This document shows positions 2,119 to 64,000 of a stretch of 64,000 nt of DNA, piece after piece. The stretch is from assembly GCA_951406725.2 (NCBI GenBank), contig OX597818.1, forward strand, positions 89,652,001-89,716,000. The letters run 5' to 3'. Made by a program: the position numbers and the translations under genes. Under the pieces are notes generated by a model. That model saw only the letters and a program-made list of their open reading frames with translations. It was not told where the DNA came from and ran no database searches. The stretch's first letter is position 1. Every line of letters starts with the position of its first letter. The stretch is from Octopus vulgaris (taxonomy: Eukaryota).

Positions 2119-2945
2119 CAATCTTCACTGTAAAAATAAATGCGCCCTTTTAAAGCCTAGCCAGGCTCATGGGCCCGGTTTCCCGGTTTCTATGGCGTAT
2201 GTGTTCTCTAGCTAGATGGGTCGCCAGTCCATCGCAGCGTTACCCATTTTTGCCAGCTGAGTGGACTAGAGCAACGTGAAACGAAGTGTTTTGCTTAAGA
2301 ACACAACGCATCGCTCGGTCCAGGAATCGAAACTACAATTTTACGATCACGATGCAGACACCCTAACCACTAAGCCACGCGCTTCCACCCATCTTCACTG
2401 TAGGTAAAGTTAAAATGTAAACACATTCTTTCTATAGTATAGAAAGAATGCGTTTACAGTCCAGTTTGGATAATTCTTATCTGATAATTCTGATAAGTCA
2501 TCGAAGAATCACCATACTGACGCAGATCTAGCCTGATTTAAAATGTCAAGTATGTTGATTAAAGACAAAGTAACGTATGAGATAATAGTATAAGAGTGTA
2601 TATGACCGGACTATGAACTCTATCGTCTCTAGAATGTATGTTTACAATATTTATATGTACACTACTGTCTTTGAAATATATTCCATCTTTGATCGATGTT
2701 GTTGAAATAGGGGTTGTTAAGAAAGTTCGCTTTGTAACCGACGTAATTTCGGGTTCAGTCCCACTGTGGGGAACCTAGGACAAGTGTCTTTTACTATTGC
2801 CCCGGGCCGACCAATACCTTTTCAGTGAATTCGGAAGTCGGAAATTGTGCGCACGCACACATGCATGTGTCCACCCGCCGTTAGGTTACTGGTAGAAAAA
2901 GCAGGGTTTTGTATAGAAAACAGGAATGGTTTTTTTCTTCTCATA

Positions 2946-3113
2946 GGCGCAGGCGTGGCTGTGTGGTAAGAAGCTTGCTTCCCAACCACATGGTTTCGTG
3001 TTCAGTTCCACTGCATGTAACCTTGGGCAAGTGTCTTCTACTATAGCCTCGGGCTGACCATAGCCTGTGAGTGGATTTGATAGAAGAAAACTGAAAGAAA
3101 CGCGTCATGTATA

Positions 3114-3186
<73 letters not shown>

Positions 3187-3199
3187 GTCTATCTATCTA

Positions 3200-3268
<69 letters not shown>

Positions 3269-3448
3269 GTATGTGTGTGTTTGTGTTTGTCCTCCACCAC
3301 CATCGCTTGACAACCAGTGCTGGTGTGTTTAGGTCCCCGTAGCGGTTCGGCAATAGAGTCCGGCAGAATAAGACCCTAGCTTTTAAAAACATAAGTACTG
3401 GCGTTTATTCATTCGACTTAAAATTCTCCAAGGTGGTGCCCCAGCATG
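2946..3448 (+). mobile_element. SINE family A, 3'-truncated at the junction with LINE sequence
   Basis: Full head GGCGCAGGCGTGGCTGTGTGGTAAG, internal (CTAT)n/(TA)n; breaks off at GGTGCCCCAGCATG where other copies continue GCCGCAGTC. Confidence 0.8.
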
Positions 3449-3721
3449 AAAGTTACAACATAAATGTAATACCAAGTGCAACCAAAAGTATCAGTGGGGA
3501 GGCGGGGCTCGTGGGGTCCGAGCTAAACCCGCACCCACTCCACCCGTAATGTCTTCCGGTCTGTCCTATCACTCGATTTCTGTCCATTTATTGTTATTCA
3601 TGAAAATTTTTAAACCCGATTTATTGTAAAAACCCATTCGTTTGTCTGACCCCATCATCAGATTGTATTGTCCCATCTGTGTTCGCCCCTTGTGGGTAAT
3701 AATAAAACAACATGGAGGAAA
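3446..3721 (+). repeat. 5' copy of a 276-bp direct repeat (last ORF2 codons + LINE 3'UTR + 15-bp flank)
   Basis: Identical to 8704-8979 except one C/T (GTCCTATC vs GTTCTATC). Confidence 0.95.
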
Positions 3722-3939
3722 TCAATTTATTGCGTTATTAGTAAGTTGATATATATTTTTGCTCACATACTACTTATCTCTGTTATTATATACTGTTGGT
3801 CTACCTTTTTTTGTCCATTGTTGTCTAACGGACGAAGTCAACCTTCGCGCGAAGACTTCGCGTTGGTGTTCCCCCCTCAGTGGGGGAAAACTACAATCAA
3901 TTTAGATTACCAAAGGCTTGTTAAAGCCATTTGTTCAAG

Positions 3940-4947
3940 ATGGAGTCCCCCATCACTTATTCGCCCGTGACGAGCGAGGATGAATACCCGGCGTTGTCGC
4001 CAAGTAAAAAAGAGGCGTTGTCGCCAAGAAAAAAAGAGGCGCTGTCGCCGAAGAAAAAAGAGGCGGCGTCGCCCAAGAAAATGGTAAAACCAGTACCAGC
4101 ATCAACTCCAGCAAAAAAATTCGCTGAAGTGGCTGGGAAGAAAATTAAAAAAATTAACGTGGACAACCTGGGAAAACATGCGGACTGTGTGTCAAAAGAG
4201 GGCACGGAAGTAACCGTGGCTTCAAACGCCCAAATACAGGAGGATATTTCGAATAGGAGAATAATCTATAAGACATTCAGTATAACAAACAGAGCAATCC
4301 AAAAAATAGAGGAGAAAAAGATTGAAAACTGCTTAAAGCCAATAATGGATAAAATTACGTATATCAATCGAGGGAAGAAATACGGCACAGTGGAGGTGAG
4401 ATTCACGTCAGAGGAGGTAGCGAAGAAGCTATCCATGGAACCCATAAAAGCGGAGGATATTGTTCTCCTACCCCTGTATAAAGGCAAGAGAACTTCCAAG
4501 ATCACAATGAACAACATCCCGCCAGAAGCGGATGCCGAAGTCCTAGTGGCAGCAGTTATGGTAGGCCTGGAGGAAAAAATAAACATCCTCCAGGCCACCG
4601 TAGAAGAAGAAGAATTCTGGAAAGGGCAAAAGATAATAATAGCCATACAAGCAGAAGTACAAACCCTGGAAGAGATCCCAGAGACTCTAAGGATAAGCGA
4701 AGATGAAAGAGTCACAGTCTTCGTAGAGGGCAGAAAGCCGAGGTGCTTCGGCTGCGGTAAGAAGGGGCATGTAAGGGCGGAATGCCAGCCCCAACCCAAA
4801 CCGCAGGAAGCACCTAAGCCAAAAGGAAAAGAAGACAATGTGTCACCAGAAGCAGCGTCAGACGGCCCAGAAGGGAAGACTGAAGGTGTGGAGGTGATGG
4901 TAACAGCAGAACCAGCGGCGGAGAAAAAAAGAGCGAGGAAAAGATAA
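3940..4947 (+). CDS. LINE ORF1p (gag-like nucleic-acid-binding protein, CX2CX4HX4C zinc knuckle); probably extends to 5316 through three 1-bp homopolymer frameshifts
   Basis: First ATG at 3940; CFGCGKKGHVRAEC knuckle; N-terminal SPKK-type repeats; lies directly upstream of ORF2. Confidence 0.88.
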   Translation: MESPITYSPVTSEDEYPALSPSKKEALSPRKKEALSPKKKEAASPKKMVKPVPASTPAKKFAEVAGKKIKKINVDNLGKHADCVSKEGTEVTVASNAQIQEDISNRRIIYKTFSITNRAIQKIEEKKIENCLKPIMDKITYINRGKKYGTVEVRFTSEEVAKKLSMEPIKAEDIVLLPLYKGKRTSKITMNNIPPEADAEVLVAAVMVGLEEKINILQATVEEEEFWKGQKIIIAIQAEVQTLEEIPETLRISEDERVTVFVEGRKPRCFGCGKKGHVRAECQPQPKPQEAPKPKGKEDNVSPEAASDGPEGKTEGVEVMVTAEPAAEKKRARKR

Positions 4948-5325
4948 ATGAGGAGGGGTGGGCAAAAATTATCGGAAAAAAAAAAGAAAAACGGAAACCA
5001 CCCCTCCCAGAGTAATTTTAAAAAAGAAAAAAGAGTCAATGAACTCATATATGGCCGTAAAAGCATCAAATAGCAGACTCGGAAACGTGTTGGCAGCCAT
5101 GGCCAATGTGAAGAGAGTAGAGAAAAAAATGACTTTGTAATTTACAAAATAGACCGGAAGGATTACGGGCGGATAAAGTCAGAATTCTTCCATGACGTAG
5201 GCCCACTTAGGTTGGATGTAACATCTCCACATATATTCGAGGGCCTACGTCAGACTCCCCCACGAGGCCCAGAAAAAGAGAAGGAAGAAGAAGAAAAAAC
5301 CGAACCACTGATATAAAGGTAAGTA

Positions 5326-8300
5326 ATGGATTACATTTATGTTGGTTGTTTAAATGTGCGCGGCCTGGGAGCAGGCTGGAAGCAAGGTCGCTTCCTGCAT
5401 GATATCAGGTCGCGTAATTTAGATGTTATTGTTGCTACAGAAACCCGGCTAGAGGGGCCAAGAGGTCTACTCCCGCTGTTTGACGGCTACGAGAGTTTTT
5501 TCTCTCCTGGCAGTCCTACAGGCGGGAGTGGGGTGTTGGTCCTATTAAAAAGAAACCGGGTTTCTGAGAAAAAGTTAATTTTTGCAGATCCAGAAGGTAG
5601 GCTGGTCGTCATGGATTTGACGTTCAGTAATGGTAAAGTTATCAGACTGGTTGCAATTTACGCACCCAACCATACAGGGCAAAGTGATTATTTTCGTGAA
5701 CTAGAAAACTTTCTTGGTACTTCGCATTCATTAGTGGTGCTAGGAGACTTTAACACAATTTGCAAAGCGGATGTAGATTATGTTGGCTCGTGTCCAGATA
5801 GAAAAGGCAACAGTGGCTTCATGGAACTGCTAAGCCGCTTTGAGCTAGCAGATCCTTATAGGCTGGAATTTCCGAACGCTCCATTGTGGACATGGTCAAA
5901 CAGCGACGGATCTTCCAGGTCGTATCTAGATAGAATACTAATTAGAAAAGTAGACAGTAAAATAGCTAAGTGTCCACAGTTTTACCCGATCAGCTACAGT
6001 GATCATAAAATGGTCACTTGTAAGCTTGACATAGATAAGGTTAAAAATAGAGGATCCGGTTACTGGAAACTTAATACGTCCCTTTTGGCGATTAAGGAGT
6101 ACAAAGACCGGATTAGGAATATAATTCAGAGGGCACTATCTGGTACCATCATTAATAACAAATGGTGGTACGCCCTCAAACGAGCCATCAAGTTTGAGTC
6201 TATTAGATATAGCATAGGAGTAGTGGCTAGAGAGGCTAGAAGGGAAACTACTCTAGTTAAGGAATTAGAGGAAGCCATGAAAACTGGCTCTGCGGCTCAG
6301 GTGGCGGCCAAGAGACTGGTGTTAAACCAGCACCTCGAGGCCAAACACATGGGCTGCATTGTCAGGGCTAGAATCCGTCATATGGGATGTGAAGGAATCA
6401 ACGCCGTGAGATGGGCCCGAGTGGTGGAAGCTCAGCATGGTAACGATGCCACGATTCGATCTTTGACGAACCAACAAGGTGAGTTGATAAACGAACCCGA
6501 GGAGATGTGTGAGGCTTTTCAGGAGCACTTCGCTCAGCTTTTCGGTGAGTGCGGCGGACTGGATAGGAGGAGGGCCTTTACGGACCTACTCGACGGTCTA
6601 CCGCGCTTATCGGGGCGAGATGCGGAGGGCTGTGAAGGGCCAATCACGCCTGAGGAGGTGGTTGAGGCAATGGCGGACTGCGGCGCGGGCAAGGCGCCGG
6701 GTTTGGATGGTCTACCCTATGAGTTATATAAGAGTATGCCAGACTTGTTCGGGCACCTACTGGCGGAGGTCTACGCGAACTGGCAGCAGAACGGGCTTAT
6801 ACCCAGATCTGTGCGCCGGGGAGTAGTGACTCTCGTCAGAAAGGACCCGAGCAAGGGGGAGTGCATTGATAATTTCAGGCCCATCACTCTGCTAAACACA
6901 GAGTTGAAGATTTTGGCCAAAGTGTTATCGAAAAGATTGGCGCGTGTCGCGGATGGTCTGATCGGAGGGGCACAGACATGTGCCGTTCCGGGCAGATCCA
7001 TTCAGGATAATCTCCATCTAATGCGGTACACTATAGAGGGGTTTAATAGTGATTCTGGCAAGGGTGGGGCACTGGTCCATTTAGACCAATCTAAAGCTTT
7101 TGATAGGGTCGACCATCGTTACCTGGTATCTGCCCTGGCACAGTTCGGGCTGAGCCTTGGATTCCTCAGGTGGATTATCGAAATTTATGATAACATCGAC
7201 TCGGTAGTTCGGGTGAACGGCTTCTTGTCGAAGCCGTTCAAAATCAAACGCTCGGTTCGTCAAGGGTGTCCGCTCTCCCCGCTTTTGTACGTGATGGCTC
7301 TTGAGCCATTACTGCGAAAACTGAGCGGCATCCCGAGACAGCCAGGTAATGGAAAATCAGTGTCAGCGTACGCGGATGACATCACCATCATCGTAACCGA
7401 AATGGACCACCTATGTAAAGTAGGCAAGGCCATAGAGGTGTACGAGACGGTGACAGGAGCAAAAGTTAATCGCGAAAAGTCAGTCGGCTTGCAACTCGGC
7501 ACCTGGAGAGGCAAGTCGATGCCTCCTGACAGCGTCGTGGGACGTTGGACGGAGGGTCCGATTAAACTGCTAGGGGTCTGGTTCGGTCCAGACCTCCAAA
7601 TAGAGAAGAATTGGGGCGAGGTAACGAGCAAGGTGGCTGCAGTAGCCAAGACCTGGTCTTGGCGGTGGCTATCCCTGAAAGGGAGGGCGGAGGTGGCCAA
7701 TGTGTTTATCGCATCGGTTATCACCTACCGCCTTTCCGTCGTTCCTTGCCCTGATTCGTGGTTGATCAAGTTGGAAAGACAGCTCTTCTACTTCTTGTGG
7801 AAGGGCGGGAAACCACTTGTGAAACGCTCTACTTGCTGTCAACAACCGTTAAAGGGTGGGCTAGGGATGCCTTGGCTGATGATGCGCAGACATGCGCTGA
7901 GGTTAAGACATCTGTGGCTCTACCTGGATGGTGAACGGGTGTGGTCTTTGCTAGCAAAACTGATGTTTCCCAAGTTCACTAGTTTCGGTGGATGGGAAAC
8001 CTGGCTGAATCGTAGATCGAAACTTGGTACTTGGTACACGGAGTGTCGCAAGGCTCTCCTGCTATTCCGTCGCTCGGGCAACGCCTGCGGTGGGGGTTCC
8101 ACCACATTCTTCTATAGAGGGTTGGTAGAGGCGGAATGTGAAGATACCTTGGGGGAAACCCTAGGTCTCGACGATAATCAGCTGGCCAGTCTGTTCCGAC
8201 GTACGTTCGAGCCAAGGACACTGGACAACTTCCAGAAGTCTCTGGCATGGCAATGCTACAGAGGAGCTCTACCTGTTCGGGATAAACTCGCAAGGCACGG

Positions 8301-8721
8301 TGGCCAAGACAGTCCGATATGTCCAAGATGCGGGCGGGATAGGGAAACCGTCCCGCACGCGATTGTTCATTGTCCGGACGTGTCTGAGGTGTGGGTTTAT
8401 GCCGAACACCTGTTGTCAGGTACACGAAGAGTACAGCTGTCGACTGAGTCGATTACAAAAATTGACCCACCGGATTTCCTCGTGAATGAAGGTAAGTTTC
8501 GTTTTCTCGTTGTAGTAGCAATCGCGAAAGAGGTGATATGGAAGACGAGAATGAAAGGTTTACAGTCAGGCAAGTTCATCTCCGGCCCTGGTTTGATGAA
8601 TTATTTCATCTTTCATCTGAAAAGGAAGATAGGGCTGGAGAGAATATGCCTGACTAGGAGAGCGTATGAAGAACGATGGAAGGATGTAGCACGGAAGTTG
8701 CGAATGAAAGTTACAACATAA
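5326..8721 (+). CDS. LINE ORF2p: APE endonuclease + reverse transcriptase + C-terminal zinc finger (Tx1-like), uninterrupted
   Basis: APE motifs LNVRGL, ATET, IYAPN, VLGDFN, SYLDRI, SDH; RT motifs APGLDG, FRPITLLN, DQSKAFDRVDH, QGCPLSP, YADD; CPRC...HAIVHC finger; 1131 aa without stops. Confidence 0.97.
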   Translation: MDYIYVGCLNVRGLGAGWKQGRFLHDIRSRNLDVIVATETRLEGPRGLLPLFDGYESFFSPGSPTGGSGVLVLLKRNRVSEKKLIFADPEGRLVVMDLTFSNGKVIRLVAIYAPNHTGQSDYFRELENFLGTSHSLVVLGDFNTICKADVDYVGSCPDRKGNSGFMELLSRFELADPYRLEFPNAPLWTWSNSDGSSRSYLDRILIRKVDSKIAKCPQFYPISYSDHKMVTCKLDIDKVKNRGSGYWKLNTSLLAIKEYKDRIRNIIQRALSGTIINNKWWYALKRAIKFESIRYSIGVVAREARRETTLVKELEEAMKTGSAAQVAAKRLVLNQHLEAKHMGCIVRARIRHMGCEGINAVRWARVVEAQHGNDATIRSLTNQQGELINEPEEMCEAFQEHFAQLFGECGGLDRRRAFTDLLDGLPRLSGRDAEGCEGPITPEEVVEAMADCGAGKAPGLDGLPYELYKSMPDLFGHLLAEVYANWQQNGLIPRSVRRGVVTLVRKDPSKGECIDNFRPITLLNTELKILAKVLSKRLARVADGLIGGAQTCAVPGRSIQDNLHLMRYTIEGFNSDSGKGGALVHLDQSKAFDRVDHRYLVSALAQFGLSLGFLRWIIEIYDNIDSVVRVNGFLSKPFKIKRSVRQGCPLSPLLYVMALEPLLRKLSGIPRQPGNGKSVSAYADDITIIVTEMDHLCKVGKAIEVYETVTGAKVNREKSVGLQLGTWRGKSMPPDSVVGRWTEGPIKLLGVWFGPDLQIEKNWGEVTSKVAAVAKTWSWRWLSLKGRAEVANVFIASVITYRLSVVPCPDSWLIKLERQLFYFLWKGGKPLVKRSTCCQQPLKGGLGMPWLMMRRHALRLRHLWLYLDGERVWSLLAKLMFPKFTSFGGWETWLNRRSKLGTWYTECRKALLLFRRSGNACGGGSTTFFYRGLVEAECEDTLGETLGLDDNQLASLFRRTFEPRTLDNFQKSLAWQCYRGALPVRDKLARHGGQDSPICPRCGRDRETVPHAIVHCPDVSEVWVYAEHLLSGTRRVQLSTESITKIDPPDFLVNEGKFRFLVVVAIAKEVIWKTRMKGLQSGKFISGPGLMNYFIFHLKRKIGLERICLTRRAYEERWKDVARKLRMKVTT

Positions 8722-8979
8722 ATGTAATACCAAGTGCAACCAAAAGTATCAGTGGGGAGGCGGGGCTCGTGGGGTCCGAGCTAAACCCGCACCCACTCCA
8801 CCCGTAATGTCTTCCGGTCTGTTCTATCACTCGATTTCTGTCCATTTATTGTTATTCATGAAAATTTTTAAACCCGATTTATTGTAAAAACCCATTCGTT
8901 TGTCTGACCCCATCATCAGATTGTATTGTCCCATCTGTGTTCGCCCCTTGTGGGTAATAATAAAACAACATGGAGGAAA
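8704..8979 (+). repeat. 3' copy of the 276-bp direct repeat
   Basis: Matches 3446-3721. Confidence 0.95.
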
Positions 8980-9240
8980 GCACCTTCGAAAAGTGTCTTG
9001 GTGCGACTATGAAAAGTATCTAATCAGAGGCGGTAAATTCGCCACAATAGAAGCAATAGAAGCAATCGAGCAAGTGGAAATATTTTATTTTTACCTTTAT
9101 ATCTGGTACGTAGGACGTGCCGGAAAAAAATTTGAAATTCCCCCCCCCCCCCGAAGTAAAGGTAGGCTGGATTGTAGCCACACTTCTATACAAGAGGGAG
9201 GACAAGATACAATTGATCGAAATTACAAGAGACGGGCTAA
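8965..9240 (+). pseudogene. Decayed ORF1 fragment of a related Tx1-like LINE
   Basis: Frame-shifted translation MEESTFEKCLGATMKSI/YLIRGGKFATIE...[47 protein letters not shown] aligns by eye to ORF1p IEEKKIENCLKPIMDKITYINRGKKYGTVE...DIVLLPLYKGKRTSKITMNNIPPEADAEVLVAAVMVGLEEKINILQAT. Confidence 0.75.
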
Positions 9241-9385
9241 CAATTCCAGTCTGTTATATATTTTGAGTATTGTTATCACTAGCGATATCAAGATATAACT
9301 TTGTATTTTGTATTTTATGTGTAGATGTATATATATATAGATGTACATGTAATATGTACACATATATATACACATATATACATGC

Positions 9386-9425
9386 ACTAGCACTATGACC
9401 CGGCAACGACGGGTCTTTAATGCTA

Positions 9426-9468
<43 letters not shown>

Positions 9469-9515
9469 TACATGCACTAGCACTATGACCCGGCAACGAC
9501 GGGTCTTTAATGCTA

Positions 9516-9517
<2 letters not shown>
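9386..9517 (+). repeat. Two tandem 42-bp hairpins (period 90 bp) resembling Helitron 3' termini
   Basis: ACTAGCACTATGACCCGGCAACGACGGGTCTTTAATGCTAGT at 9386 and 9476; GACCCG/CGGGTC stem followed by CTAG|T; similar to the reverse complement of 21535-21574. Confidence 0.7.
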
Positions 9518-9554
<37 letters not shown>

Positions 9555-9726
9555 CACACACATATATATACATATATACATATACATATACATATATATA
9601 CATATATATATATATACATATATATACATATATATATACATAAATATATATACATATATATATATGCACACATATACATATACTTATACATATTTTATAC
9701 ATATATATATATATACACACACATGT

Positions 9727-14303: not shown

Positions 14304-14600
14304 ACAGAATCCCCAATAGTGGGGCAGTCCGCTTAGGGTATTCCGGGGTAAATCTAAAAAATCTCGGATTACTCTGACATCTCCAAGGCATGGGTAAGTG
14401 CACTCACCGGTCTTGCCTCTGTCGACCACCTTTTGATAAACACACTAGAAGGCAACACCTCCCACTCTACCCCCACCTTCCGCTTCGACTGATATTTGAA
14501 GAAATTGATGAGGGCTTGACCAGGTAGGAATGTGTCTGTCTTCAAACCTTTCAGACGTGTCCACCACACAGCCTCTTTTGCAACAGCCACTAAGCAGAGA
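14100..14600 (-). mobile_element. Tx1-family LINE 3' fragment
   Basis: VAVAKEAVWWTRLKGLKTDTFLPGQALINFFKY matches the ORF2 C-terminus; 3' end GCCCTTGTGGCCAATAAAAGAAA. Confidence 0.85.
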
Positions 14601-14601
14601 A

Positions 14602-14635
<34 letters not shown>

Positions 14636-22912: not shown

Positions 22913-25813
22913 TAAAGAGCTATAGGCTAGGCTATATAATTTTACAATTTATTTGCAAATATTGGGTCAGCTTCTCCGACATAATTTTGGATTAAATATT
23001 TTATGAACAAGGCCCTAAGCTTTTAATATTAGTTTCAAGTTTTGGCACAAGGCCAGCAAGTTCGTTAAGCATTTTGCCCAGTGAGTTAATGATTCCACCC
23101 GCTCACCTCTTTCCTAAGTCTTTGATATTAATGATATATAACTATTAACCTTGACTAGAAAATAGTACAGGTTCTCTGACTTTTGTTTAAGCTAGATTTG
23201 GTTCAAACCTGCCATGATTAGCATAGATATTTATGTTTTTGTTTTCCAGCCTTTTGTAGCTCACTGTCCCCTTATATAGAATTGCATTTAACAAACTCAC
23301 CTCAGCATATTTTTTTTAAAATGCAGGAATTTTGGGTTTTGATCTTATTGTGTGATACCTTCCTTGGGAGTGCTCTACTGTAGCACTGAGTTGACCAATT
23401 CCATTTGAGGTAATTTGGGAGATGGAAACTGCAGGAGACCCTTCACATGTATGTATATATATATACATATATATATATGTGGCACATAAAAAGCACCATC
23501 CGTCCGTGGCCGTTTGTCAGCCCCGTCTGGCACCTGTGTCGGTGGCACGTAAAAAGTACCCACTACACTCACGGAGTGGTTGGCGTTAGGAAGGGCATCC
23601 AGCCGTAGAAACACTGCTAGATCAGACTGGGCCTGGTGCAGCCTTCTGGCTTCCCAGACCCCAGTTGAACCGTCCAACCCATGCTAGCATGGAAAGCGGA
23701 CGCTAAATGATGATGATGATGATGATATATATGTGTGTGTGTGGATATAAGTCAAACTACTCAACCTATGCCAGTATAGAGGATGACAATGATATGTATA
23801 TGTCTGAATGTGTGGTGATATTTGTATTCCACAGTTGTCTGTACTCGAGTGAAGAGGTGCAGTTGTTGGCATTCCTTGTTGCCATTATGATTCTTTGTAT
23901 AACTGTATGAAGACAGACATGAGTAAAATAACAAAATATCACTTATTGACTAAATACCTGGACATTGTATGCTTCTTTTACAGAGAGTACTTTTCAACTG
24001 TGCTTTGATTTCTCAGAAATGGCTGCCGAATATTTAACAAATTACTTCATGCCATCTTAAATTAAGAAAATAAACATTCTTATTAAAAAATGTTGGGATG
24101 GTCTCAGTTGTATTGCCATTGGTCATAGGTCTGTAATGTCAGAGCTGACATTACAGCCAATGAACAAACACACCGTATAGAAAGTTACAGAAGTTATGTA
24201 CGTTCATCTGATATATATGTATGTGTGTATGTGCGTGTGTGTGTGTGTATATTCTTTTTTTTAAATTTTTGCGCCCTTTTCAAGCCTAGCCAGGCTCATG
24301 GGCCCAGTTTCCCAGTTTCTGTGGCGTATGTGTTCCCTCCAGCTGGACGAGACACCAGTCCATCGCAGCGTTACCCAAGAAACAGGAAGAAAGAGTAAGA
24401 GAAAGTTGGGGCGAAAGAGCACAATAGGGGTCGCCACCATCCCCTACCGGAGCCTCGTGGTGCTTTAGGTGTTTTCACTCAATAAACACACACAACGCTT
24501 GGTTTTGGAATCGAAACCGCAAGTATATATATATATATATACACACACAGACATATATATCATCATCATCATCAGCAAATGAAGTTAAACGATGCTGATG
24601 ATGTGTGTGTTTGTGTGTATGTATCTCTTATCTTGACATCGTGTGATAATTGTAAATGATAGTCACTGTCATACAAGCAGTGTGATTCATTTCTAATATT
24701 CTGTGTGAACATATCTGGCAGTGGGGAAATATTACCTTGCTTGGAAACAGGTGAGTGTTGATGACAGGAAGGGCATCCGACTACAGAAAATTTTCCTCAA
24801 TAAACTCCGTCCGACTCATGCAAGCATGGAAAAATGAACATTAGATAATGATGGCGACAAAGGTAATCTTAATGAAGAGATTATAATTACAAGATAAAGT
24901 TGACTGAAATAACTTTAGTCATTGAGTCAGTGTTGTCTTTCCTTCACATAATTATTTCTAATTAGATTTTTGGATATTTATTACATAAAACATATTCCTT
25001 TCTATGCTAGGCACAGGGCCCAAAATTTTTGGGGTGGAGGCCAGCCGATTACATCGACCCCAGTATGCAACTGGTACTTACTTTATCGACCCCGAAAGGA
25101 TGAAAGGCAAAGCTGACCTTGGTGGAATTTGAACTCAGAGCATAAAGACAGATGAAATGCCACTAAGCATTTTGCCCTGTGTGCTAATGTTTCTTATTTC
25201 TTTATTGCCCACAAGGGGCTAAACATAGAGGGGACAAACAAAGGTATTAAGTCGATTAGATCAACCCCAGTGCCTAACTGGTACTTAATTTATCGACTTC
25301 GAAAGGATGAAAGGCAAAGTCGGCCTTGGCGGAATTTGAACTCAGAATGTAACGGCAGACGAAATACCACTAAGCATTTCGCCCGGTGTGCTAATGTTTC
25401 TGCCAGCTCGCCGCCTTGATTACATTAAAAATATGAAGACTCTTTTATCTTTTCCTTTTTACTTGTTTCAGTCATGAGACTGTGGCATTACCTTTAGAAA
25501 TATTTAGTCAGCTGTATCAACCCCAATATTTATTTTTTTAAAGCCAGGTACTTATTCTATTGGTCTGTTTTGTCGAACCGCGAAGTTACTGGGACAAAAA
25601 CACACCAGCACTGATTGTCAAGCAGTGGTGGTGGTGGGAGGGAACAAAACACACACACACACAAATATATATACATAGTTTGCTTATCAACCACATGGTT
25701 CCAGGTTCAGTCCCACTGCATGGCACCTTGATCAAGTGTCTTCTACTATAGCCTCAGACTGACCAAAGCCTTGTGAGTGGATTTGGTAGACAGAAACTAG
25801 AAGAAGCTCATCG

Positions 25814-25848
<35 letters not shown>

Positions 25849-26174
25849 ATATGTTTGTCTGTGTTTATCCTCTAAGCATCACTTGACAACCGATGCTGGT
25901 GTGTTTATGTCCCTGTAACTTAGCGGTTTGGCAAAAGAGACCGATAGAATAAGTACTAGGCTTACACAGAATAAGCTCTGGGATCGATTTGCTCGACTAA
26001 AGGCGATGGTCCAATATAGCTGCAATCAAATGACTGAAACAAGTAAAAGAGTAAACTGACAGAATACAAAGAATAAGTCCTGGAGTCAATTTGCTCAACT
26101 AAAAGCAGTGCTCCAGCATGGCCGTAGTCAAATGACTGAAAGAAGTAAAAGAATGAAAAAAATATATATATATA

Positions 26175-26549
26175 CTAGCAGTATCGCCCGGCGTTGCTCG
26201 GGTTTGTAAGGGAAATAACTATATAAGCATTTTTAGAGAGTTATAGCCAAAAAATAGCAAAAAAATGCATTAAAAATGGAAAAAAATTATGGTAAATTTT
26301 TTTTTAAATCGTTGACTCATCGTAGACATTTTTAGAGAGTTACTTCCCTTATATAATAGCGAAAAATATGCATTAAAATGAAAAAAAATGATGGTAAATT
26401 GTAGACGCGTGCTAATACCCAGAAGGGCTCGATATGAATCACGACTATAAGATACCCGGTTTTGGTTAAACTGCACCGCAAAATGTGGGAGTAGTTAGGA
26501 ATCTAAATTGTAGGAGACAGACACACAACTTCTCTTTTATATATAAAGA
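26175..26549 (-). mobile_element. Non-autonomous Helitron
   Basis: 5'-TC (TCTTTATATATAAAAGAG), subterminal CCCG-AGCAACGC-CGGG hairpin, CTAG-3'; inserted between A and T with no TSD. Confidence 0.85.
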
Positions 26550-31201: not shown

Positions 31202-31434
31202 AAAGGCGGCGAACTGGCAGAAACGTTAGCACGCCGGGCGAAATGCGTAGCCGTATTTCGTCTGCCTTTACGTTCTGGGTTCAAATTCCGCCGAGGTCGA
31301 CTTAGCCTTTCATTCTTTCGGGGTCGATAAATTAAGTACCAGTTATGCACTGGGGTTGATGTAATCGACTTAATCCGTTTGTCTGTCCTTGTTTGTCCCC
31401 TCTGTGTTTAGCCCCTTGTGGGTAGTAAAGAAGT
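31202..31434 (+). mobile_element. SINE family B, full length, 13-bp TSD
   Basis: TSD ATATAGGATCACT at 31189 and 31435; A-box TGGCAGAAACGTT, B-box GGTTCAAATTCC. Confidence 0.9.
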
Positions 31435-39639: not shown

Positions 39640-40075
39640 CATTAAGGCGTTACATAGAGGGGACATACAAGTACAGACAAACATATAGGGTGTAGTAGCT
39701 TAAATCGTTTTAGTATTTACAATATAATGTGTACACTATTTACTATATAAAGTTTACAAATTCAATATTACACAGTAGGGCAAGGAACCCAGCCATCTGG
39801 GTAGAACCTTTACTTCTTGATCCGGCCACACTTACCTGGTGCCAAATATACCCAGCTTGCAAGCTACAGACTTCCATCTTTTCACAAACATATCTCATGA
39901 CAGACACCTCTTCTCCAGCCTGATCTTACTACCGAGGTGGTAACTAAAAAAGTTAACCAACCCCTGGCCGGATACAAAGGTACCTGTCATTATACCTTTC
40001 GTACGCGTCTTCCATACTGTTTCTTTCAGTATGGCTACTACGCAGGAAAAACAAGCCTTACTTTCCCTGCTGAGG
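39640..40075 (-). mobile_element. Tx1-family LINE 3' fragment
   Basis: SREsKACFSCVVAILKETVWKTRTKGIMTGTFVSGQGLVNFFSYHL matches the ORF2 C-terminus; TTGTATGTCCCCTCTATGT tail. Confidence 0.8.
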
Positions 40076-42116: not shown

Positions 42117-42504
42117 CTGTATGTGTGTATATGACTGTATCGATCAGACTATCGGACGATTTTTATACACAACTGGTCGCAATGCGCTTCCTTGCATTAT
42201 TGTAGTTTTCGAATGATGTCACCTCGCTAAGATAGGCAGGCAGGCCGACATTCCCCGTTAAACGGAACGACAATCTGTGTGGTTTAGAGCTGAAGAACAT
42301 AGCGCACTGTCAACCTGGGAATCGAAACTGCGATCTCGCGATCGTGGGTGCAACAGCCTAATTAGGTCACGCGCCTATACGCTCATACACGCGCGCCTTA
42401 ATCACCTGCTAAGTCTTGCGGAAAGTACAGTGCACAAGACCTTTTTCAAACACCATTACCGACACGTTAAAGTTAATGTTTCGTTTAAACTGAAGTCAGC
42501 TTCT

Positions 42505-42906
42505 TATTTCTTTATTGCCCAGAAGGGGCTAAACACAGAGGGGACAAACAAGGACAGACAAAGGGATTAAGTCGATTACATCAACCCTAGTGCGTAACTG
42601 GTATTTTATTTATCGACTCCGAAAGGATGAAAGGCAAAGTCGACCTCGGCGGAATTTGAACTCAGAACGTAACGGCAGACGAAATACCTATTTCTTTACT
42701 ACCCACAGAGGGGTCAAACAAGGACAGAAAACCAATTAAGTCGATTACATCGACCCTAGTGCGTAACTGGTACTTTATTTATTGACCCCGAAAGAATGAA
42801 AGTCAAAGTCGACCTCGGTGGAATTTGAACTCAGAACGTAGCGGCAGACGAAATACCGCGAATCGTTTCGCCCGGCGTGTTAACGATTCTGCCAGCTCGC
42901 CGCCTT
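42505..42906 (-). mobile_element. SINE family B head-to-tail dimer with a single 14-bp TSD
   Basis: TSD TGAAGTCAGCTTCT at 42491 and ~42907; internal junction GAAATA|GGTATTTCG. Confidence 0.85.
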
Positions 42907-45754: not shown

Positions 45755-46189
45755 CATCATGTGTGTGTGTGTATTCACGAGAAGTTTTCATTATAACTTT
45801 ACTGAAAGTTTTATTCACTTGTTACGCCCCATTCTGAAGTAACCCCTGTCATCTTTATCCTACACGGAGGGGCTTGCATTCCATCTTGAGAAACATTGGT
45901 CTCTCCCTCAAGTCGATGTTGACATACTGTGTCTCTTTGCTGACATCTAAATACTATGTTTGAGTATAGAGTGGCTACCTACCCTCTGTATTTGTTTCTA
46001 TCTAATCCCTGAAGGATTTGGGGTAGAGATTCGGGTAGCGGTTCCCCACCCCACCCACGCCGGACGACTTTTGAGTCTCCTCCATAAGCTCGAGTAGGGT
46101 GGTTGATCGGGACGAAGCAGAACGGGTTACGGCAAATTCAATGACTAAGGCATAAGCATACTGCACAGTTACCTGGGACCCAGTTTTGA

Positions 46190-46930
46190 TCTGTGTATGT
46201 TGTGGCTTGTTATCAGTAAATAAATACTACAGGGCCCCCGTGCATTGATCTTCCTGGGGGCCTCTTAAGTCTAGGGACCCAATTCTGCTCTGTGTATGCT
46301 ATGGTTTATTGTCAATAAATAAATAAGATAGGACTCCGTGCATTGATCTGCCAGGGGGCCTCTTAGGTCTAAGGGCCCAATTTTGCTCTAGGTATACTGT
46401 GGCCTGCTGTCAGTAAATAAATATTATAGGACCCCGTGCATTGAGCTGTTAGGGGGCCTTTTAGGTCTAGGAACCCAATTCTGCTCTATGTATGCTGTAA
46501 CCTGCTGCCAGTAAATAAATGCTATGGAGCCCCGTCCATTGATCTGCCTCGGAGCCTCTTAGATCTAAAGGCATCCAGTTCTGCTCTAGGTATGCTGTGG
46601 CCTGTTATCAGTAAATAAATCCTATAGGGCCACGTGCATTGAGCTGCCAGGGGGTATCTTAGGTCTAAGAACCCAATTCTGCTCTAGGTATGCTGTAACC
46701 TGCTGCCAGTAAATAAATGCTATGGAGCCCCGTCCATTGATCTGCCTCGGAGCCTCTTAGATCTAAAGGCATCCAGTTCTGCTCTAGGTATGCTGTGGCC
46801 TGTTATCAGTAAATAAATCCTATAGGGCCACGTGCATTGAGCTGCCAGGGGGTATCTTAGGTCTAAGAACCCAATTCTGCTCTAGGTATGCTGTGGCCTG
46901 CTGTTAGTAAATAAATACTATAGGGCCCAG
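46190..46930. repeat. ~98-100-bp minisatellite, ~7.5 units, with a recent 198-bp dimer duplication
   Basis: GTAAATAAAT recurs at ~46217, 46312, 46413, 46511, 46611, 46709, 46809, 46907. Confidence 0.9.
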
Positions 46931-47151
46931 TGTTTTTATTTTCCCGAGGATCTATAAAGCTGCTGAAATGGCCTTGGCTACCATGGACGGTACATACTCT
47001 AGCTAAGCCTCTGCCTAAACCACGTCTACACACGAAGTCCTTCAGTTCCTCCACTTAGTCACTACACATTGTATCTATCTGGTCAATAAATATTTACACG
47101 CTAAGTCACTTTATACAATGTACATCATCTACGCACCGGATCTGTCTATGC

Positions 47152-47400: not shown

Positions 47401-47736
47401 ATTTATACCATAACAAAAACACAAGAGAATGATTGCTGCTTTAGATTCGGTTTGATTCCTAGCTGTACCGTTTCACTCAAACCCCCGTTAATGTCTCCCT
47501 TTCATTTTACTCATAACCTCCTTAAAATGTAAGATCTCATTTTTACGTAAAAAAACCCCCAAATATATAAACAAAAAAAAAACATAACGTAAGTGAAGAT
47601 TCTTAAACGATTTCAATCTCTAGTTGAATTTAATTTACATTTTTTATCTTTTACTTGTTTCACTCATTGGACTGCAATCATGCTTGGGAACTATCTTGAA
47701 GAGCTTTAGTCCAACAGATCAAGCCCAGTATTAGGG

Positions 47737-49445
47737 CTACCTGCTGTCGTCTCTTCTGTGCGTATTGACACTCGAGCCACTGCTGCAGAAACTGGAACAG
47801 CTAAGGGGCATCCCTTTCCAACTGGGACAAGGAAGGGTAGTGTCGACATACGCGGACGACGTCACTGTCATGGTGTCGGACGCCTCCGAAGTGGAAACGG
47901 TCGGAACCATCCTAAAGGAATATGAGTCCGTTGCAGGTGCTAAAATCAACGCCGACAAATCGGTGGGTTTGCGGTTGGGCTCCTGGAGACGGTGTCGTCG
48001 CACGCTGCACCGACGGGCCAGTTAAATTGTTCGGGGTCTGGTTTGGTCTCGACCTCCAGGTTGATAAAAAAATGGGCAGAAATGGGCTGAGAGGAAGTTG
48101 TCCTTGAAAGGTCGGGCGGAGATGGCGAATGCTTACATCTCCGTATTTCATTTATCGCCTGACCGCCGTGCCTTGTCCCGGTTACTGATTGAACAGGTTG
48201 GAATGTCTCTTGTTTAAATTCTTATGGAGAGGATGCGCTCCAATTATCAGGTGGTCAGCCTGTTGCCAGTATCCTCTGAGTGGCGGATTAGGTATGCCGT
48301 CACTCCTAATGCGCAGATACGTTCTTAGGTTATTCCACCTGCAACGATTTCTGGACGGAGAGCGTGTGTGGGCTCCGTCTGAGAGGCTCGTCTTTTCGCT
48401 GCTCGTCTCCTTGACGGAGTTGAGTGAAGATAAAAACCGAGACTGGGCGCCTGGCACCTAGAATGTTATCAGGTGCTCACATCTCTCTAGCAGTAGGGCG
48501 GTGGGATCGGTGGATGTTCTGCTTTAGAAATGTATAGAGCATTAGTTGCGGGGAAGTGCAACGACGCTCTCGGGGAGACTCTGGGCGTCGACAAGAACGA
48601 ACTGGCTAGTCTGTTCCGGTCAAGAACTATCATGAATAATTTCCAGATATCCTTGGCCTAGCAGTGCTACCGGCGGGCGCTACCGGTTCAAAATACACTC
48701 TACTGGCACGGATGTGCTGTCAGACGGGCTTGTCCGAGGTGTACGCAGTGACGAAACCATTCTGCACGTCCTCGTTCAGTGTCCAGGCATTGCTGACTTG
48801 TGGGGTTATGTCGAACAGCTGCTGTCACGTGTGGGGCGTTTCCGACTGTCGCCCGAATCTGTAGTGATGATCGCACCGCTGCCCTCCTCAATCAGGCAGG
48901 CAAGGCAGTTTTCCTTTGCCTGGTTGCAGTGGCGAAAGAGGCTGTTTGGTGGACAAGGCTGAAAGGCATGAGGACAGATACATTCCTATTTGGTATAGCT
49001 CTCATTGACGTCTTCAAGTTTCACTTAAAAGTTTCACTTAAAAGTTTCACTTAAAAAGGAAATAGAGAGTGGAGAGGAAAGTGCTGTCTTCGAGTGAGTT
49101 TACTGAAAGATGGTGAAAGTTGCTAAAATGGCAAGAATCAATGGTACCTCTCTAAGTGTTGACCTGTGAAGTCGGAGAGAAGGAATTGGAGAGGCCACTT
49201 GTTCCTGGGGTTTCAGAGAAATCTCAGACAGTGGCCTTCCCTAGAGGCCTTCCTGTACCAGGAGGGCCACATTTCTATCATTCTCCTGTCATTTAAAAAA
49301 AAAAATAACCCTTCTCTTTCAGTGTATACCGTGTATACTTAATTTCTTTCTTTCTTTTTTTTTAATCCTTTCATTATATGTAAACCCCCACACTTTGAAT
49401 GTCTGTCTGTGTGTTGTCTCCTCATCATTCGCCCTTGTGGCAAAG
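47737..49445 (+). mobile_element. Decayed 5'-truncated Tx1-family LINE
   Basis: LEPLLQKL...YADD...GAKINADKSVGLRLGSW, GGLGMPSLLMRR, ETILHVLVQCP; several frameshifts; 3' end GCCCTTGTGGCAAAG. Confidence 0.9.
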
Positions 49446-54026: not shown

Positions 54027-55075
54027 AAGGCGGCGAGCTGGCAGAAACTTTAGCACGCCGGGCGAAATGCTTTGTGGTATTTCGTCCGCCGCTGCGTTCT
54101 GAGTTCAAATTCCGCCGAGGTCGACTTTGCCTTTCATCCTTTCGGGGTCGATAAATTAAGTACCAGTTACGCACCAGTGCGTAATCGACTTAATCCGTTT
54201 GTCTGTCCTTGTTTGTTCTCTCTGTGTTTAGCCCCTTGTGGGTAGTAAAAAAATAGGTATTTCGTCCGCCGCTACGTTCTGAGTTCAAATTCCGCCGAGG
54301 TCGACTTTGCCTTTCATCCTTTCGGGGTAGATAAATTAAGTACCAGTTACGCACTGTGGTCGATGTAATCGACTTGATACGTTTGTCTGTCCTTGTTTGT
54401 CCCCTCTATGTTTAGCCCCTTGTGGGTAGTAAATAAATAGGTATTGTGACGATGAAAGGCGGCGAGCTGGCAGAAACGTTAGCACGCCGGGCGAAATGCT
54501 ATGCGGTATTTCGTCCGCCGCTGCGTTCTGAGTTCAAATTCCGCCGAGGTCGACTTAATCCGTTTGTCTGTCCTTGTTTGTCCCCTCTGTGTTTAGCCCC
54601 TTGTGGGTAGTAAAAAAATAGGTATTATGACGATGATGGTGACGATGATGATGATGCTTGCTGATGTTGTTGTTTAGCCCCTGGTCACATACCCTCGGTC
54701 GAAGCAGAATTCTATGATCAAAGTTACTGAACACAAAACTAATTCAAATTCCGTTCTGAGTTCTGAGTTCAAATTCCGCCGAGGTCGACTTTGCTTTTCA
54801 TCCTTTCGGGGTCGATAAATTAAGTACCAGTTACGTACTGGGGTCGATGTAATCGACTTAATCCGCTTGTCTATCCTTGTTTGTCCTCTCTTGTGGGCAG
54901 TAAAGAAATAGGTATTTCGTCTGCCGTTACGTTCTGAGTTCAAATTCCGCCGAGGTCGACTTTGCCTTTCATCCTATCGGGGTAGATAAATTTAGTACCA
55001 GTTGCGTACTGGAGTAGATCTAATCAACTGGTCCCCTTCCCCAAAATTTCAGGCCTTTGTAGTAGAAAGGATTAT
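54027..55075 (+). mobile_element. Tandem array of SINE family B units
   Basis: At least five full or partial units; GGTATTGTGACGATGA repeated at 54011, 54440 and (one mismatch) 54621. Confidence 0.85.
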
Positions 55076-58966: not shown

Positions 58967-61752
58967 CAATTTCATATAGTCAGTTACACAGATCACAAGT
59001 TTGTGACTTGTACACTTGACTTAGATAAGACACATAGGCAGGGTCCTGGTTACTGGAAACTGAACGCGTCTTTTACAGCACGACAGGTTTACAGGGACCG
59101 GATCTGCACATTAGTTAAGAGAGCTTTGACGGGTACCATCATCAACAACAGATGGTGGTATGCCCTAAAAAAAGCGATTAAAGCAGAATCAGTCAGATAC
59201 AGTAGAGCCCTAGCATTAGACCGAAATAGATTAGAGGGAGATTTAGTTAAGGTTTTAGAAGAGGCACTTAGAACTGGCATCGCGTCCAACGTACTGGCGG
59301 CGAGATTGGCCCTCGACCAACACCTCAACGCCAAACACGAAGGATGCGTTGTCAGAGCTAGGATGCGTGCTCTGAGGAACGAAGGAGTTGGAGCCGCCCA
59401 AGAGGCCCGAGTGGTGGAGACGCAACGAGGCAACAGAGCCACCATCAAGTCTCTTATAGATGAACAGGGGCGCGAATTGCTCGAGCCTAAAAGGATGTGT
59501 GGGGTTTTTCAACAACACTTCACCCAACTGTTTGGGACAAGTGGTGAGTCAGAAAGCAGAGTGGACTTTAGTGCCTACCTGCATGCCTTGCCACGACTCT
59601 CAGCAAGGGAGGTGGAGTCTTGTGAAAAGCCTATCACAGCTGCGGACGTACAGGATGCGATGGTAGGCTGCGCGAGAGACAAGTCACCAGGCTTGGATGG
59701 TCTGCCCTACGAATTTTATTTTCATATGCCAGACTTGTTTGGAGGCGTCTTGGCAGCTGTCTACTGCAACTGGCAGCAGAACGGGAGTATTCCTGCTTTT
59801 GTAAAGCGAGGAGCAGTGGCACTGATCAAGAAAGACCCAAACAAGGGGGACGCCATAGATAATTTCAGGCCCATCACTCTGCTCAACGCAGATTTGAAAA
59901 TTTTGGCCAAGGTGTTAGCCGAGAGGTTGGCGCTTGTCATCAAGAAACTAATCGACAAGGCGCAAACATGTGCCGTGCCGGGTAGAAGTATTCATGACAA
60001 CCTCCATCTGATGCGCTACATCATAGACAGGGTAGTTAAAAATCCTGGCATGGGTGGGGCGCTGATCAATTTGGATCAATCAAAAGCCTTCGATAGGGTA
60101 GACCATCACTACTTGGAGGCTGTCCTCAAAGCGGCTGGTTTCGGTCCAGTTTTCCGCGGTTGGATCGCTGCCTTATACAGCGGCATCCGCTCAGTAGTTC
60201 GCGTAAATGGTCACCTATCCAGACCTTTTAACATCATGCGTTCGGTTCGTCAGGGATGCCCCCTCTCATCGCTGCTGTATGTACTGACTCTTGAGCCACT
60301 ACTGCGGAAACTGGCGACGCTGAGGGGCATCCCACGAGAGCTGGGATGCGGGAGGAGCGTGTCTGCATACGCGGACGACGTCACCGTCATAGTGTCGAGC
60401 TACGAGCACATCGAGCTGGTCGGCGAGACACTGAAAGAATACGAAGCGGTAACGGGAGCAAAAATTAACCGGGAAAAGTCAGTGGGCTTGCGGCTCGGCA
60501 CCTGGAGAAGCAAGCCCATGCCGTCCAACAGCGTCTCCATCGTGGGACGCTGGACGGACGGACCGGTTAAATTGCTCGGGATCTGGTTCGGTCCGGACCT
60601 CCAAATGGAGAAGAACTGGGGCGAGATAACGACTAGGGTGGCTACTCTCACCCAGAAATGGACTGAGAGAAAGCTATCCCTAAAAGGTCGGGCGGAGGTG
60701 GCGAACGCGTACATCGCATCCGTCATCGAGTATCGTCTGACCGTCGTGCCTTGCCCCGACCCTACCATCACCAAACTGGAACGCATACTCTTCCGCTTCT
60801 TGTGGAAGGGAAACGTTCCGATGGTTAGGCGATCCATTTGCTGCCAACACCCGCTAAATGGAGGGCTGGGCATGCCGTGGTTGATGATGCGCAGACATGC
60901 GCTGAGACTGCGACATCTCCGGCGCTTCATAGACAACGGTGAACAGGGGTGGTCGCCTTTTGTGCGGCGCGCTTTCCCGCAGCTCGTCTCCTTGGACGAA
61001 CTACAGTCATGGATCAAGCAGAGACCGAGGCTAGGCGAATGGCACCGCGAGTGTCGCGTTGCTCTCAAGCAACTCTGCCGTCCGGGATCGAACTTGTGCG
61101 ACTCCATCACAACAAAGGCATTCTATAGAGGATTAGTGGAGGGGAGGTGCGACGACGAACTCGGGCAGAGTCTGGGCGTCGACGAGGAATACCTGACCCG
61201 CCTGTTCAGGACAACTTTCGGGCCGGGACCTATGAACAATCACCAAAGATCCCTGGCCTGGCAGTGCTATCGAGAAACATTACCTGTTCGGGATAAGCTC
61301 TACAGACATGGTTCCAGACACACTGGACCGACTTGCCCGAGATGCGGTCAGAGCGACGAAACCGTTCTGCACGCACTCGTGCAATGTCCAACCATTTCCG
61401 ACCTGTGGGCTTATGCCGAACGGCTGCTGTCACGTGTGGGACGAATCCGCCTATCGGCCGAGTCTATCGTGAGAATTGCTCCGCCCCCTTCCCTCAACCG
61501 GGAAGGCAAGGCAGTTTTCATCGTACTGGTGGCCATGGTGAAAGAATGTGTGTGGTGGACTCGAGCGAAAGGATTAGAGACAAACACTTACCTCTCTGGC
61601 CAATCGCTCATCAACTTTTTCAAGTACCACTTGAAAAGGAAGGTGAGAATGGAGAGGAAGTTTTGTCTCGCGAAAGATTCAAAAAAAGATGGGTGAATGT
61701 TGCAAAGATGGTGCGTGCTAGTAACGAAACCATTTTGAGCATGATCCTGTAG
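58967..61752 (+). pseudogene. Truncated ORF2 (RT + zinc finger), lacking most of the APE domain and a start codon; one 1-bp frameshift near 61660
   Basis: SPGLDG, FRPITLLN, DQSKAFD, YADD and CPRC...HALVQC present; the C-terminus VLSRERFKKRWVNVAKMV lies in the adjacent frame ending at 61752. Confidence 0.9.
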
Positions 61753-62053
61753 ATCGTAAAAAAGAAAGAAAGAGAGCATTTTCGATCTCATGTGGTTATT
61801 TCCTCCCTGACTGGGGTTCCCGTGGTCTTTTCTGTAGGCTGTTCTTCCCACGGATGAACCCAATCTTGTTATATCAATGTTTACATCATTATTTCTGTGA
61901 TACACGATTTCCTTTTTTTTCCTCCTCTCGATCCCTTTTGATCGCAATCTTACATTTTTTATTTTTTTCCACCCTCGAAAATGAAAAGCTCTGCATTTGT
62001 ATTTGTCCCCTCTGTATTCAGCCCTGTGTGGCTAATAAAAGAAAGAAAGAAAG
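58967..62053 (+). mobile_element. 5'-truncated Tx1-clade LINE (second subfamily) inserted in (TATC)n
   Basis: Starts in frame at QFHIVSYTDHKF (end of the APE domain); 3'UTR ends GCCCTGTGTGGCTAATAAAAGAAAGAAAGAAAG, then (TATC)n. Confidence 0.93.
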
Positions 62054-62458: not shown

Positions 62459-63351
62459 CATATATGTATGGTGATATGAAAGGAAATAGAGATTTGGTTT
62501 TCTGTGTATACATACATACATACAGACAGACATACATGGTGGCTGCCCCTCGTTGTCGAGTATGGCCATTGCACGAAGCTTAATCAATGTTGTTATCGTG
62601 CAATGCCTGTGCAAGAAGATTTTTTTTTAAAGTGAAGAAAGGCTGTGCACTAAGTCAATCCCACTCACTAAGCAACAGCAGCCATAATCCGAAAAGAAGA
62701 ACAAGTCAACATCATCGGTAACCACTGAGCCGCAGTTTTATGTCGGAGTTATCATAGTTACCTGAGTTACCTTCTCCTAGAAGGATGCCCTAACAAAGTC
62801 TAGTAGTCCTTCACTCCCAATGGTTTAACCGCGCGATCGGGTATTCAGTCCGATTATTTCTATGTCTCTGCGCATGATACAGCCTTAAGACATTTATTAG
62901 ATGGCCGTTGACTCTCAAGGGTTCCTCTGCCCTTTGACGGGTTTTGTTTTTCATCATGCAGGGTGTCCAATAAAAACACCCTCCTCACCAAGCAAGCTTG
63001 GTGGGGTTGCCGGTTTAGTCGCCGACGACCCGACCATGCAACAGATTGTACTGGGTTACATGTTACCAGTAGCACTACATACATACATATATATGTATAA
63101 ACTTTATTATTTCTAAATCTCTCAACGAGAGAGGTACAGTAACAGTACTTTAAAGTAATGATTATTTGTCAGCATAATGTGGCAGTCCCGGTTGGGATGA
63201 ATATTATTGTTGTTTTAGCCCCAGGATACATCGTCTTCAGCTGGCTATTCCACACACATCTGTGTCTTTATATTTTAGAACAGGGGAGCTTAGCATTCCC
63301 ACTCAGTACAAAGTAATACCTATCCATTCATCCATCCATCTATCTATCTGA

Positions 63352-63916
63352 CGGGAAGGAAGAGCTATTTTCATCACACTTGAGGCTATGGCGAAAGAAT
63401 GTATCTGGCGGACGCGTCTGAAAGGATTAGAGACAAACACTTTCCTCTCTGGTCAATCTCTCATCAACTTCTTCAAGTATCACTTGAAAAGGAAAGTGAG
63501 AGTAGAGAGGCAAGTTTTGTCTAGCGAATGTTTAAAAAAAAGATGGGTGAATGTAGCAAGGATGGCACGTATGAATGAAGCCACCTTGAGCATGATCCCA
63601 TGAATCCGGAAAAATTTAAAACAGAGAGTTAATTACTTGCAAATAAATGTGTTAACATGTGACATTACTGACCGAGGTTACCGTGGTCTTTTCCGTAGGC
63701 TTTTCTTTCCACAGACAAACCTTATCTGTTTCCCCCTTTATACTTTACGTCATGACATTTCTGTGATACATGATCCCTATTGATCGTTTTTTTTCTTTCC
63801 TTTTTACGATCCCTTTTGATCGAAAACCTACTCCACTTTTTTTTCTCCCCAAAAAGAAAAGCTCTACTTTGTAATTTGTCCCGTCAGTGTTCAGACCTGT
63901 GTGGCTAATAAAGAAA
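63352..63916 (+). mobile_element. Short 3' fragment of the 58967-type Tx1 LINE
   Basis: MAKECIWRTRLKGLETNTFLSGQSLINFFKYHLKRKVR...; 3' end TGTGTGGCTAATAAAGAAA; flanked by CCAT/CTAT and TATC/TGTC repeats. Confidence 0.9.
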
Positions 63917-64000
63917 CATATCTATCTGTCTGTCTGTCTGTCTGTCTGTAATATAAAAAAAAAAGAAGACACAGATTTATTTATACATTTTCTTCAACCG

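Follow-up and report, generated by a model that had tools for sequence, protein, structure and literature searches.

The 64,000-nucleotide window analysed here (Octopus vulgaris, contig OX597818.1, positions 89,652,001 to 89,716,000 of the forward strand; all coordinates below count from its first letter) contains a retrotransposon without long terminal repeats (non-LTR), which is bracketed by a 276-bp direct repeat (3446-8979). Sequence and contig analyses suggest that one young L1/Tx1-type long interspersed element (LINE) was inserted twice into a many-copy repeat, at one and the same nick, and that the direct repeat is the trace of this; we give this reading a slightly better than even chance. 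The locus likely holds a full-length LINE and, head to tail with it, a second copy that is truncated at its 5' end to about 261-267 nt; a likely target-site duplication (TSD) of 9-12 bp lies between them. The features are listed below, including a short interspersed element (SINE), the open reading frames (ORFs) and the untranslated regions (UTRs).

2943..3448, + strand: SINE with an internal microsatellite, its 3' part cut off at CCCCAGCATG; many paralogues in the window
3446..3448, + strand: joint between the SINE and the short LINE copy, an ATG microhomology of 3-4 nt, from sequence comparison
3446..3712, + strand: 5'-truncated LINE 3' end (last ORF2 codons, 3'UTR and tail), 99.6% identical to 8704-8970; right edge within 3706-3712
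3713..3721, + strand: target-derived bases between the copies (TGGAGGAAA), likely TSD, identical to 8971-8979; 12 bp from 3710 under a minor target allele
3722..3939, + strand: 5'UTR of the full-length element, its 5' boundary placed from the duplication; at 3749-3841 the contig depth is comparable to that of ORF1
3940..5316, + strand: ORF1, gag-like, with a weakly matching CCHC knuckle; the frame is interrupted where single bases are missing from three A-runs (4924, 4976, 5123)
5326..8721, + strand: ORF2, 1131 aa, unbroken, with AP endonuclease, reverse transcriptase (RT) and zf-RVT domains (Pfam E 1.5e-13, 1.4e-30 and 1.4e-8)
8722..8970, + strand: 3'UTR and tail, the final ~45 nt similar to the tails of window SINEs and related LINEs
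8971..8979, + strand: 3' TSD copy, from comparison with empty-target contigs; from 8968 under the minor target allele
8971..9427, + strand: many-copy dispersed repeat that serves as the target, likely Helitron-like and present here without its upstream half
9397..9426, + strand: hairpin followed by CTAG (fold z = -5.4; this stability was reached by 0 of 200 shuffles), found twice within a 90-bp tandem

The two repeat copies (3446-3721 and 8704-8979) differ at a single position, C at 3565 and T at 8823 (blastn E about 1e-140), and their outer neighbours are unlike at both ends. Chance was rejected as the origin of this match. Each copy begins inside ORF2, of which it has the final five codons plus the stop (8704-8721), continues through the 3'UTR, and finishes with ACAACATGGAGGAAA, a 15-mer present at exactly two places in the window. 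The match and its content had both been described in a first-pass annotation of this DNA, and were borne out by blastn and base-level comparison. The same annotation classified the element as a non-LTR retrotransposon, which agrees with the AP endonuclease, RT and zf-RVT domains; its term "LTR-like" holds as a resemblance only. LTR retrotransposons encode integrase, protease and RNase H, and their LTRs have TG...CA ends. None of these three domains was found by Pfam, and the repeat begins with ATG and terminates in target DNA; a true LTR retrotransposon was therefore rejected. Penelope-like elements have a GIY-YIG endonuclease and a pseudo-LTR; this origin was also rejected, since an AP endonuclease is found in place of GIY-YIG.

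The bases between the two LINE copies were compared with public sequencing runs. Half or more of the query words were contained in 20 of the 24 listed runs, and none of the runs is recorded as RNA, which says nothing about expression. Four runs were analysed as contigs, of which X2 was taken as RNA and X6, X8 and X11 as DNA, in each case by guess. The contig tables considered here list 24 of 1,692 loose ends, 15 of 118 joints, and 32 of 29,428 pieces. Contigs of the empty target match the window from 8971 only (33 contigs in X6 and 9 in X11), and their unmatched letters end GATTTGAACACC. An alternative match begins at 8968 (one contig, X11). These starting points make 9-12 bp of the 15-mer certain target sequence; the ACA or ACAACA part may be the element's own tail, which resembles an AACA in the target. 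The 15 bp first regarded as flank and TSD are thus definite target over 9-12 bp, and the remaining bases possibly belong to the element. In X2, a 340-nt contig covers 3680-4019 without gaps, with 42 letters to the left and 298 to the right of 3721/3722. It runs across the tail, the target bases and the 5'UTR, which indicates that the junction exists beyond the assembly consensus; X2 possibly derives from the same animal.

The target is a dispersed repeat with many variants. Position 9015 alone is covered by 14-76 variant contigs per run, and the summed depth over 9129-9300 is 30-47 times that of the 5' part of the LINE, as coarse contig sums rather than copy number. Helitrons have a 3' hairpin followed by CTRR and a 5' TC end, leave no TSD, and are linked to a RepHel partner. 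A hairpin followed by CTAG is present at 9397-9426, about 400 bp into the flank, and we take it to be a Helitron-type 3' end. From this end, the flank repeat is likely Helitron-like, and the 8971-9300 part and the hairpin end would belong to one element. The hairpin-CTAG end lies in an exact 90-bp tandem (9362-9552, also reported by the tandem repeat finder TRF with period 90), and a similar end occurs on the opposite strand near 26187 (26170-26210). Apart from the hairpin end, the target repeat was found nowhere else in the window, nor by exact search in the viral or genome contig collections. Rfam gave 53 matches with E<=5 over 2400-9600, none of which reached its gathering score, so the target is not an RNA gene. 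The flank ORF (8888-9298) matched no Pfam family.

On the left side, the short LINE copy abuts a truncated SINE. The last 20 nt of the cut SINE have 10 other copies in the window (search with four mismatches), all of which continue into a normal SINE tail. The joint through ATG microhomology and the truncation, both pointed out in the first-pass annotation, were confirmed; one window copy of the SINE reads CATGA, and the microhomology is better stated as 3-4 nt. The remainder of the SINE was said to be absent downstream, and indeed no tail was found by blastn in 8965-9430. Several SINE copies (54209-54618, 31389-31428, and 25194-25241 and 42504-42551 on the minus strand) have ends of ~45 nt that are 82-88% similar to the LINE tail. 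By sequence similarity, these shared tails likely reflect a LINE-SINE partnership with this element group.

These observations correspond to what is expected from two insertions into one site, as target bases lie between tandem copies and the target is multi-copy. The first-pass annotation had proposed two insertions at exactly one nick, with site specificity. The anatomy, the multi-copy target and the match of the inter-copy bases to empty-site contigs agree with the proposal; the site specificity that it implies is putative. Contig pieces of X2 differ from the window at only 11 of 4,199 nt, which points to a young LINE family. At this rate about 0.7 differences would be predicted in 261 nt, so that the one mismatch observed suits two separate young copies. 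Moreover, the tail of the LINE or of a similar element (8963/3705) is joined to 9239 in the flank repeat through five shared letters; this joint occurs in each of the three DNA-type runs but is absent from X2. This second fixed tail joint was counted in favour of a double insertion; the crocodilian family Tx1-Mar likewise has two hot spots.

We infer the following course of events, including the nick position, the priming by the tail, the order and the specificity. The endonuclease would cut the bottom strand immediately upstream of TGGAGGAAA. Reverse transcription would be primed by the RNA tail, whose terminal ACA would pair with the AACA that resembles it in the target. The full-length insertion would leave a TSD that still resembles the site. 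A second RNA would be primed at this TSD, be copied over ~260 nt, and join distant upstream DNA through microhomology; the upstream target half and the SINE tail would be lost when the short copy was joined at the ATG. The reverse order of the two insertions would yield an identical structure. The apparent LTR would then be a by-product without a role in the life cycle.

Several points weigh against the double insertion. The tandem is not preceded at its 5' side by the upstream target half: the motif of that half is missing beside 3446, where the cut SINE is found instead, and a deletion must therefore be assumed. None of the 24 loose ends listed falls at the element ends. The joints at 9239 have short sides of only 20-40 nt and may therefore be tails of abundant SINEs that landed there by chance; they could also go back to one insertion that multiplied along with the repeat. 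With its start at 3680, the X2 unitig would fit tails that diverge after AAAACA, with other flanks or target alleles. The Tx1 membership is putative, being drawn from domains.

Among the alternatives, a single concerted or repair event without site specificity should be considered first, and is judged unlikely. In the concerted variant, the RT, after making the full-length complementary DNA, copies the short target overhang and jumps to the 3' end of a second RNA. In the repair variant, a later break upstream invades the 3' TSD copy, copies about 260 nt, and rejoins at the ATG. One step would cover the same site, the target bases at the junction and the deletion bounded by microhomology, and the 99.6% identity of the copies is also in agreement. 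Template jumps and 5' additions are described for R2 and for the Tx1-moved SINEU (PMC2718515, PMC4494074). However, a further tail junction in this repeat family, itself weak evidence, would not be expected from such an event. A fresh local DNA copy would be expected to have no mismatch; one was observed, possibly an error.

A travelling 5' tag, which the first-pass annotation had proposed as its second model, is a still more doubtful explanation. Similar to HeT-A, transcription would start in the upstream 3'UTR copy and run through the tail and the target, and the daughter copies would inherit a piece of 3'UTR. The X2 contig is consistent with this, as it runs unbroken across 3680-4019, does not branch at 3721 toward the 3' flank, and differs from the window by family alleles at positions 3765 and 3939. 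The depth along the element is also flatter in X2 (ORF2/5' ratio of 2.4, versus 4.4-11.9 in the DNA-type runs). However, low-depth DNA flattens the profile likewise, X2 is possibly a DNA run or one made from the assembled animal, and its alleles are unphased relative to the junction. Weak read-through of any tandem locus would yield the same contig; because abundant transcripts starting near 3722 would add no branch, trace read-through would merge into the same unitig. The AATAAA and U-rich sequence at the junction should terminate read-through RNA, and there is no target duplication to the left of 3446. In addition, the TART repeat is a copy of 5'UTR/ORF1 sequence that lies subterminally in the 3'UTR, in contrast to the 276-bp repeat (PMC1636488).

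The last two alternatives are much weaker. Unequal exchange between the two TSDs of one insertion could have produced a full-length tandem dimer, from which a microhomology deletion later took away the upstream target, the SINE tail and the greater part of the first copy; this gives the same end structure and explains the missing upstream DNA, but it is highly improbable, as it needs recombination on 9-15 bp and a further event in a copy this young. An assembly artefact with a duplicated contig end, hinted at by the three ORF1 homopolymer gaps suggestive of an error-prone long-read consensus and by the lack of a listed piece covering the whole stretch, is scarcely credible, since the short-read contig contains the junction (42 + 298 letters) and both the target bases and the microhomology edge are present.

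The protein-coding regions place the element in the L1 group. The AP endonuclease, RT and C-terminal zinc motif are present in ORF2, and ORF1 lies ahead of it. The best PDB match of ORF2 is human L1 ORF2p (E 7e-65); R2 proteins match at 5e-26 or weaker. One of the few named matches is an Argonauta protein, with 64% identity over 41% of the query, and no named Tx1 sequence is among the 120 hits listed in the protein search. The zf-CCHC match of ORF1 (E=0.053) is below the Pfam cut-off, and no Transposase_22 was found at E<=0.1. Its protein-atlas neighbours are zf-CCHC and ZCCHC3-type (ZCCHC3-RBD) clusters, with scores of 0.90-0.91. Tx1 is consistent with an ORF1 of the RRM/zf-CCHC type rather than of the Transposase_22 type (PMC5203782).

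As assembled, ORF1 ends at 4945; its stop-free segments shift through frames 0-2-1-0 and reach a stop at 5314. The run contigs have one extra base at each of the three A-run gaps, which may be long-read or assembly errors. In X8, the ORF1 region is represented by single contigs at a depth of 791-1087, compared with about 15-37 for most one-contig joints. These depths suggest tens of near-full-length LINE copies in the genome. The RNA fold of the 3'UTR is not more stable than its shuffles (z +1.4). The closest relative in the window, a LINE with 60% aa identity in ORF2 (58967-62045), is 5'-truncated and has (TATC)n at both sides, which was also counted in favour of the double insertion; a second related fragment (63190-63920) likewise ends in TATC/TCTG repeats. 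The two suggest a sister family that prefers microsatellites. Older, decayed pieces of the same LINE group occur at 47735-49113 and, on the minus strand, at 39853-40074 and 14411-14602. The window also contains a satellite-like tandem array of 98/198 bp at 46178-46970.

The octopus tandem was compared with known systems. R1 belongs to a different clade and targets the 28S ribosomal DNA. The R1 tandems of Drosophila have a 14-bp TSD between the copies, and arise by insertion into the TSD 5' of an earlier copy (PMC2718515). More generally, head-to-tail non-LTR copies with target bases between them are a signature of double insertion, in which truncated copies are often involved (10.1101/158386). 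The octopus locus resembles R1 in its head-to-tail copies parted by a TSD, its multi-copy target, and the explanation by re-insertion at the TSD; it differs in having a dispersed repeat as target, an upstream copy of only about 260 nt, and a deletion of the upstream target half. Several Tx1 families target transposons, including Xenopus Tx1 (Tx1D piggyBac), crocodilian Tx1-Mar/SINEU-3 (Mariner-N4), and Tx1-9_AMi (Harbinger), where a family was regarded as target-specific if >20% of its flanks were in one target type (PMC4494074). Tandems of SINEU-3, for which Tx1-Mar is the likely driver, enclose a TSD and lie in a Mariner target that has two hot spots (PMC4494074). The octopus element shares with Tx1 the endonuclease-RT ORF2, a putative knuckle ORF1, a transposon-like many-copy target, tandems that sandwich a TSD, and possibly two hot spots. 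In contrast, its host is a mollusc and its target is likely of Helitron type; its clade and its specificity are putative.

In HeT-A of Drosophila, transcripts begin 31-93 nt within the upstream 3' end (PMC1636488). Both HeT-A and TART form telomeric head-to-tail arrays, and neither has target DNA between the copies. The likeness to these elements lies in the upstream 3'UTR, which abuts a full-length element, so that read-through is possible. However, the octopus locus is not a telomeric array, its flanks are a SINE and a dispersed repeat, and target DNA separates the copies.

Distant relatives were also found in metagenomes. Of 55 such sequences (24-48% identity in the best segment), four have a direct repeat >500 bp apart; two of the four are satellite flanks, and L026 and L037 are the other two. 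The blank among these relatives is weak, because most of their contigs end near the element. An exact search found no stretch of the LINE tail in metagenome contigs. L033 (1-440 and 5228-5401) and L034 (1-270 and 5034-5156) are 92%-identical L1-like elements with 24% aa identity to ORF2. Their positions within an AT-rich tandem repeat (~213 bp) are nearly the same, and they possibly represent a satellite-targeting eukaryotic family.

In O. vulgaris, 13 recently active L1-Tx1 families with 421 insertions have been reported, with 80 L1-Tx1 consensus families in the supplement (PMC13282606). The element described here may belong to one of these families. The searched portion of that paper and its supplement holds no description of a target or of terminal repeats. 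RTE elements are described in PMC9115989, where Tx1 is unmentioned. No report of a cephalopod Tx1 target or of such terminal repeats was found in the literature searched, which included few subscription papers and left Repbase outside.

In summary, the locus likely represents a real, young tandem insertion of a known type, in a new host group and possibly in a new target. A young cephalopod L1/Tx1 family may thus target a Helitron-like repeat, a kind of target that did not appear in the same literature. It is doubtful that an octopod L1/Tx1 family routinely re-inserts at its own TSD in a Helitron-like repeat and uses the upstream 3'UTR as a promoter. If true, this would be promotion from tandem copies in the HeT-A manner away from telomeres, and a living intermediate between a LINE and an LTR-like element. 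If such a tandem promoter held family-wide, it would provide a non-telomeric model for how LINEs could gain LTR-like ends.

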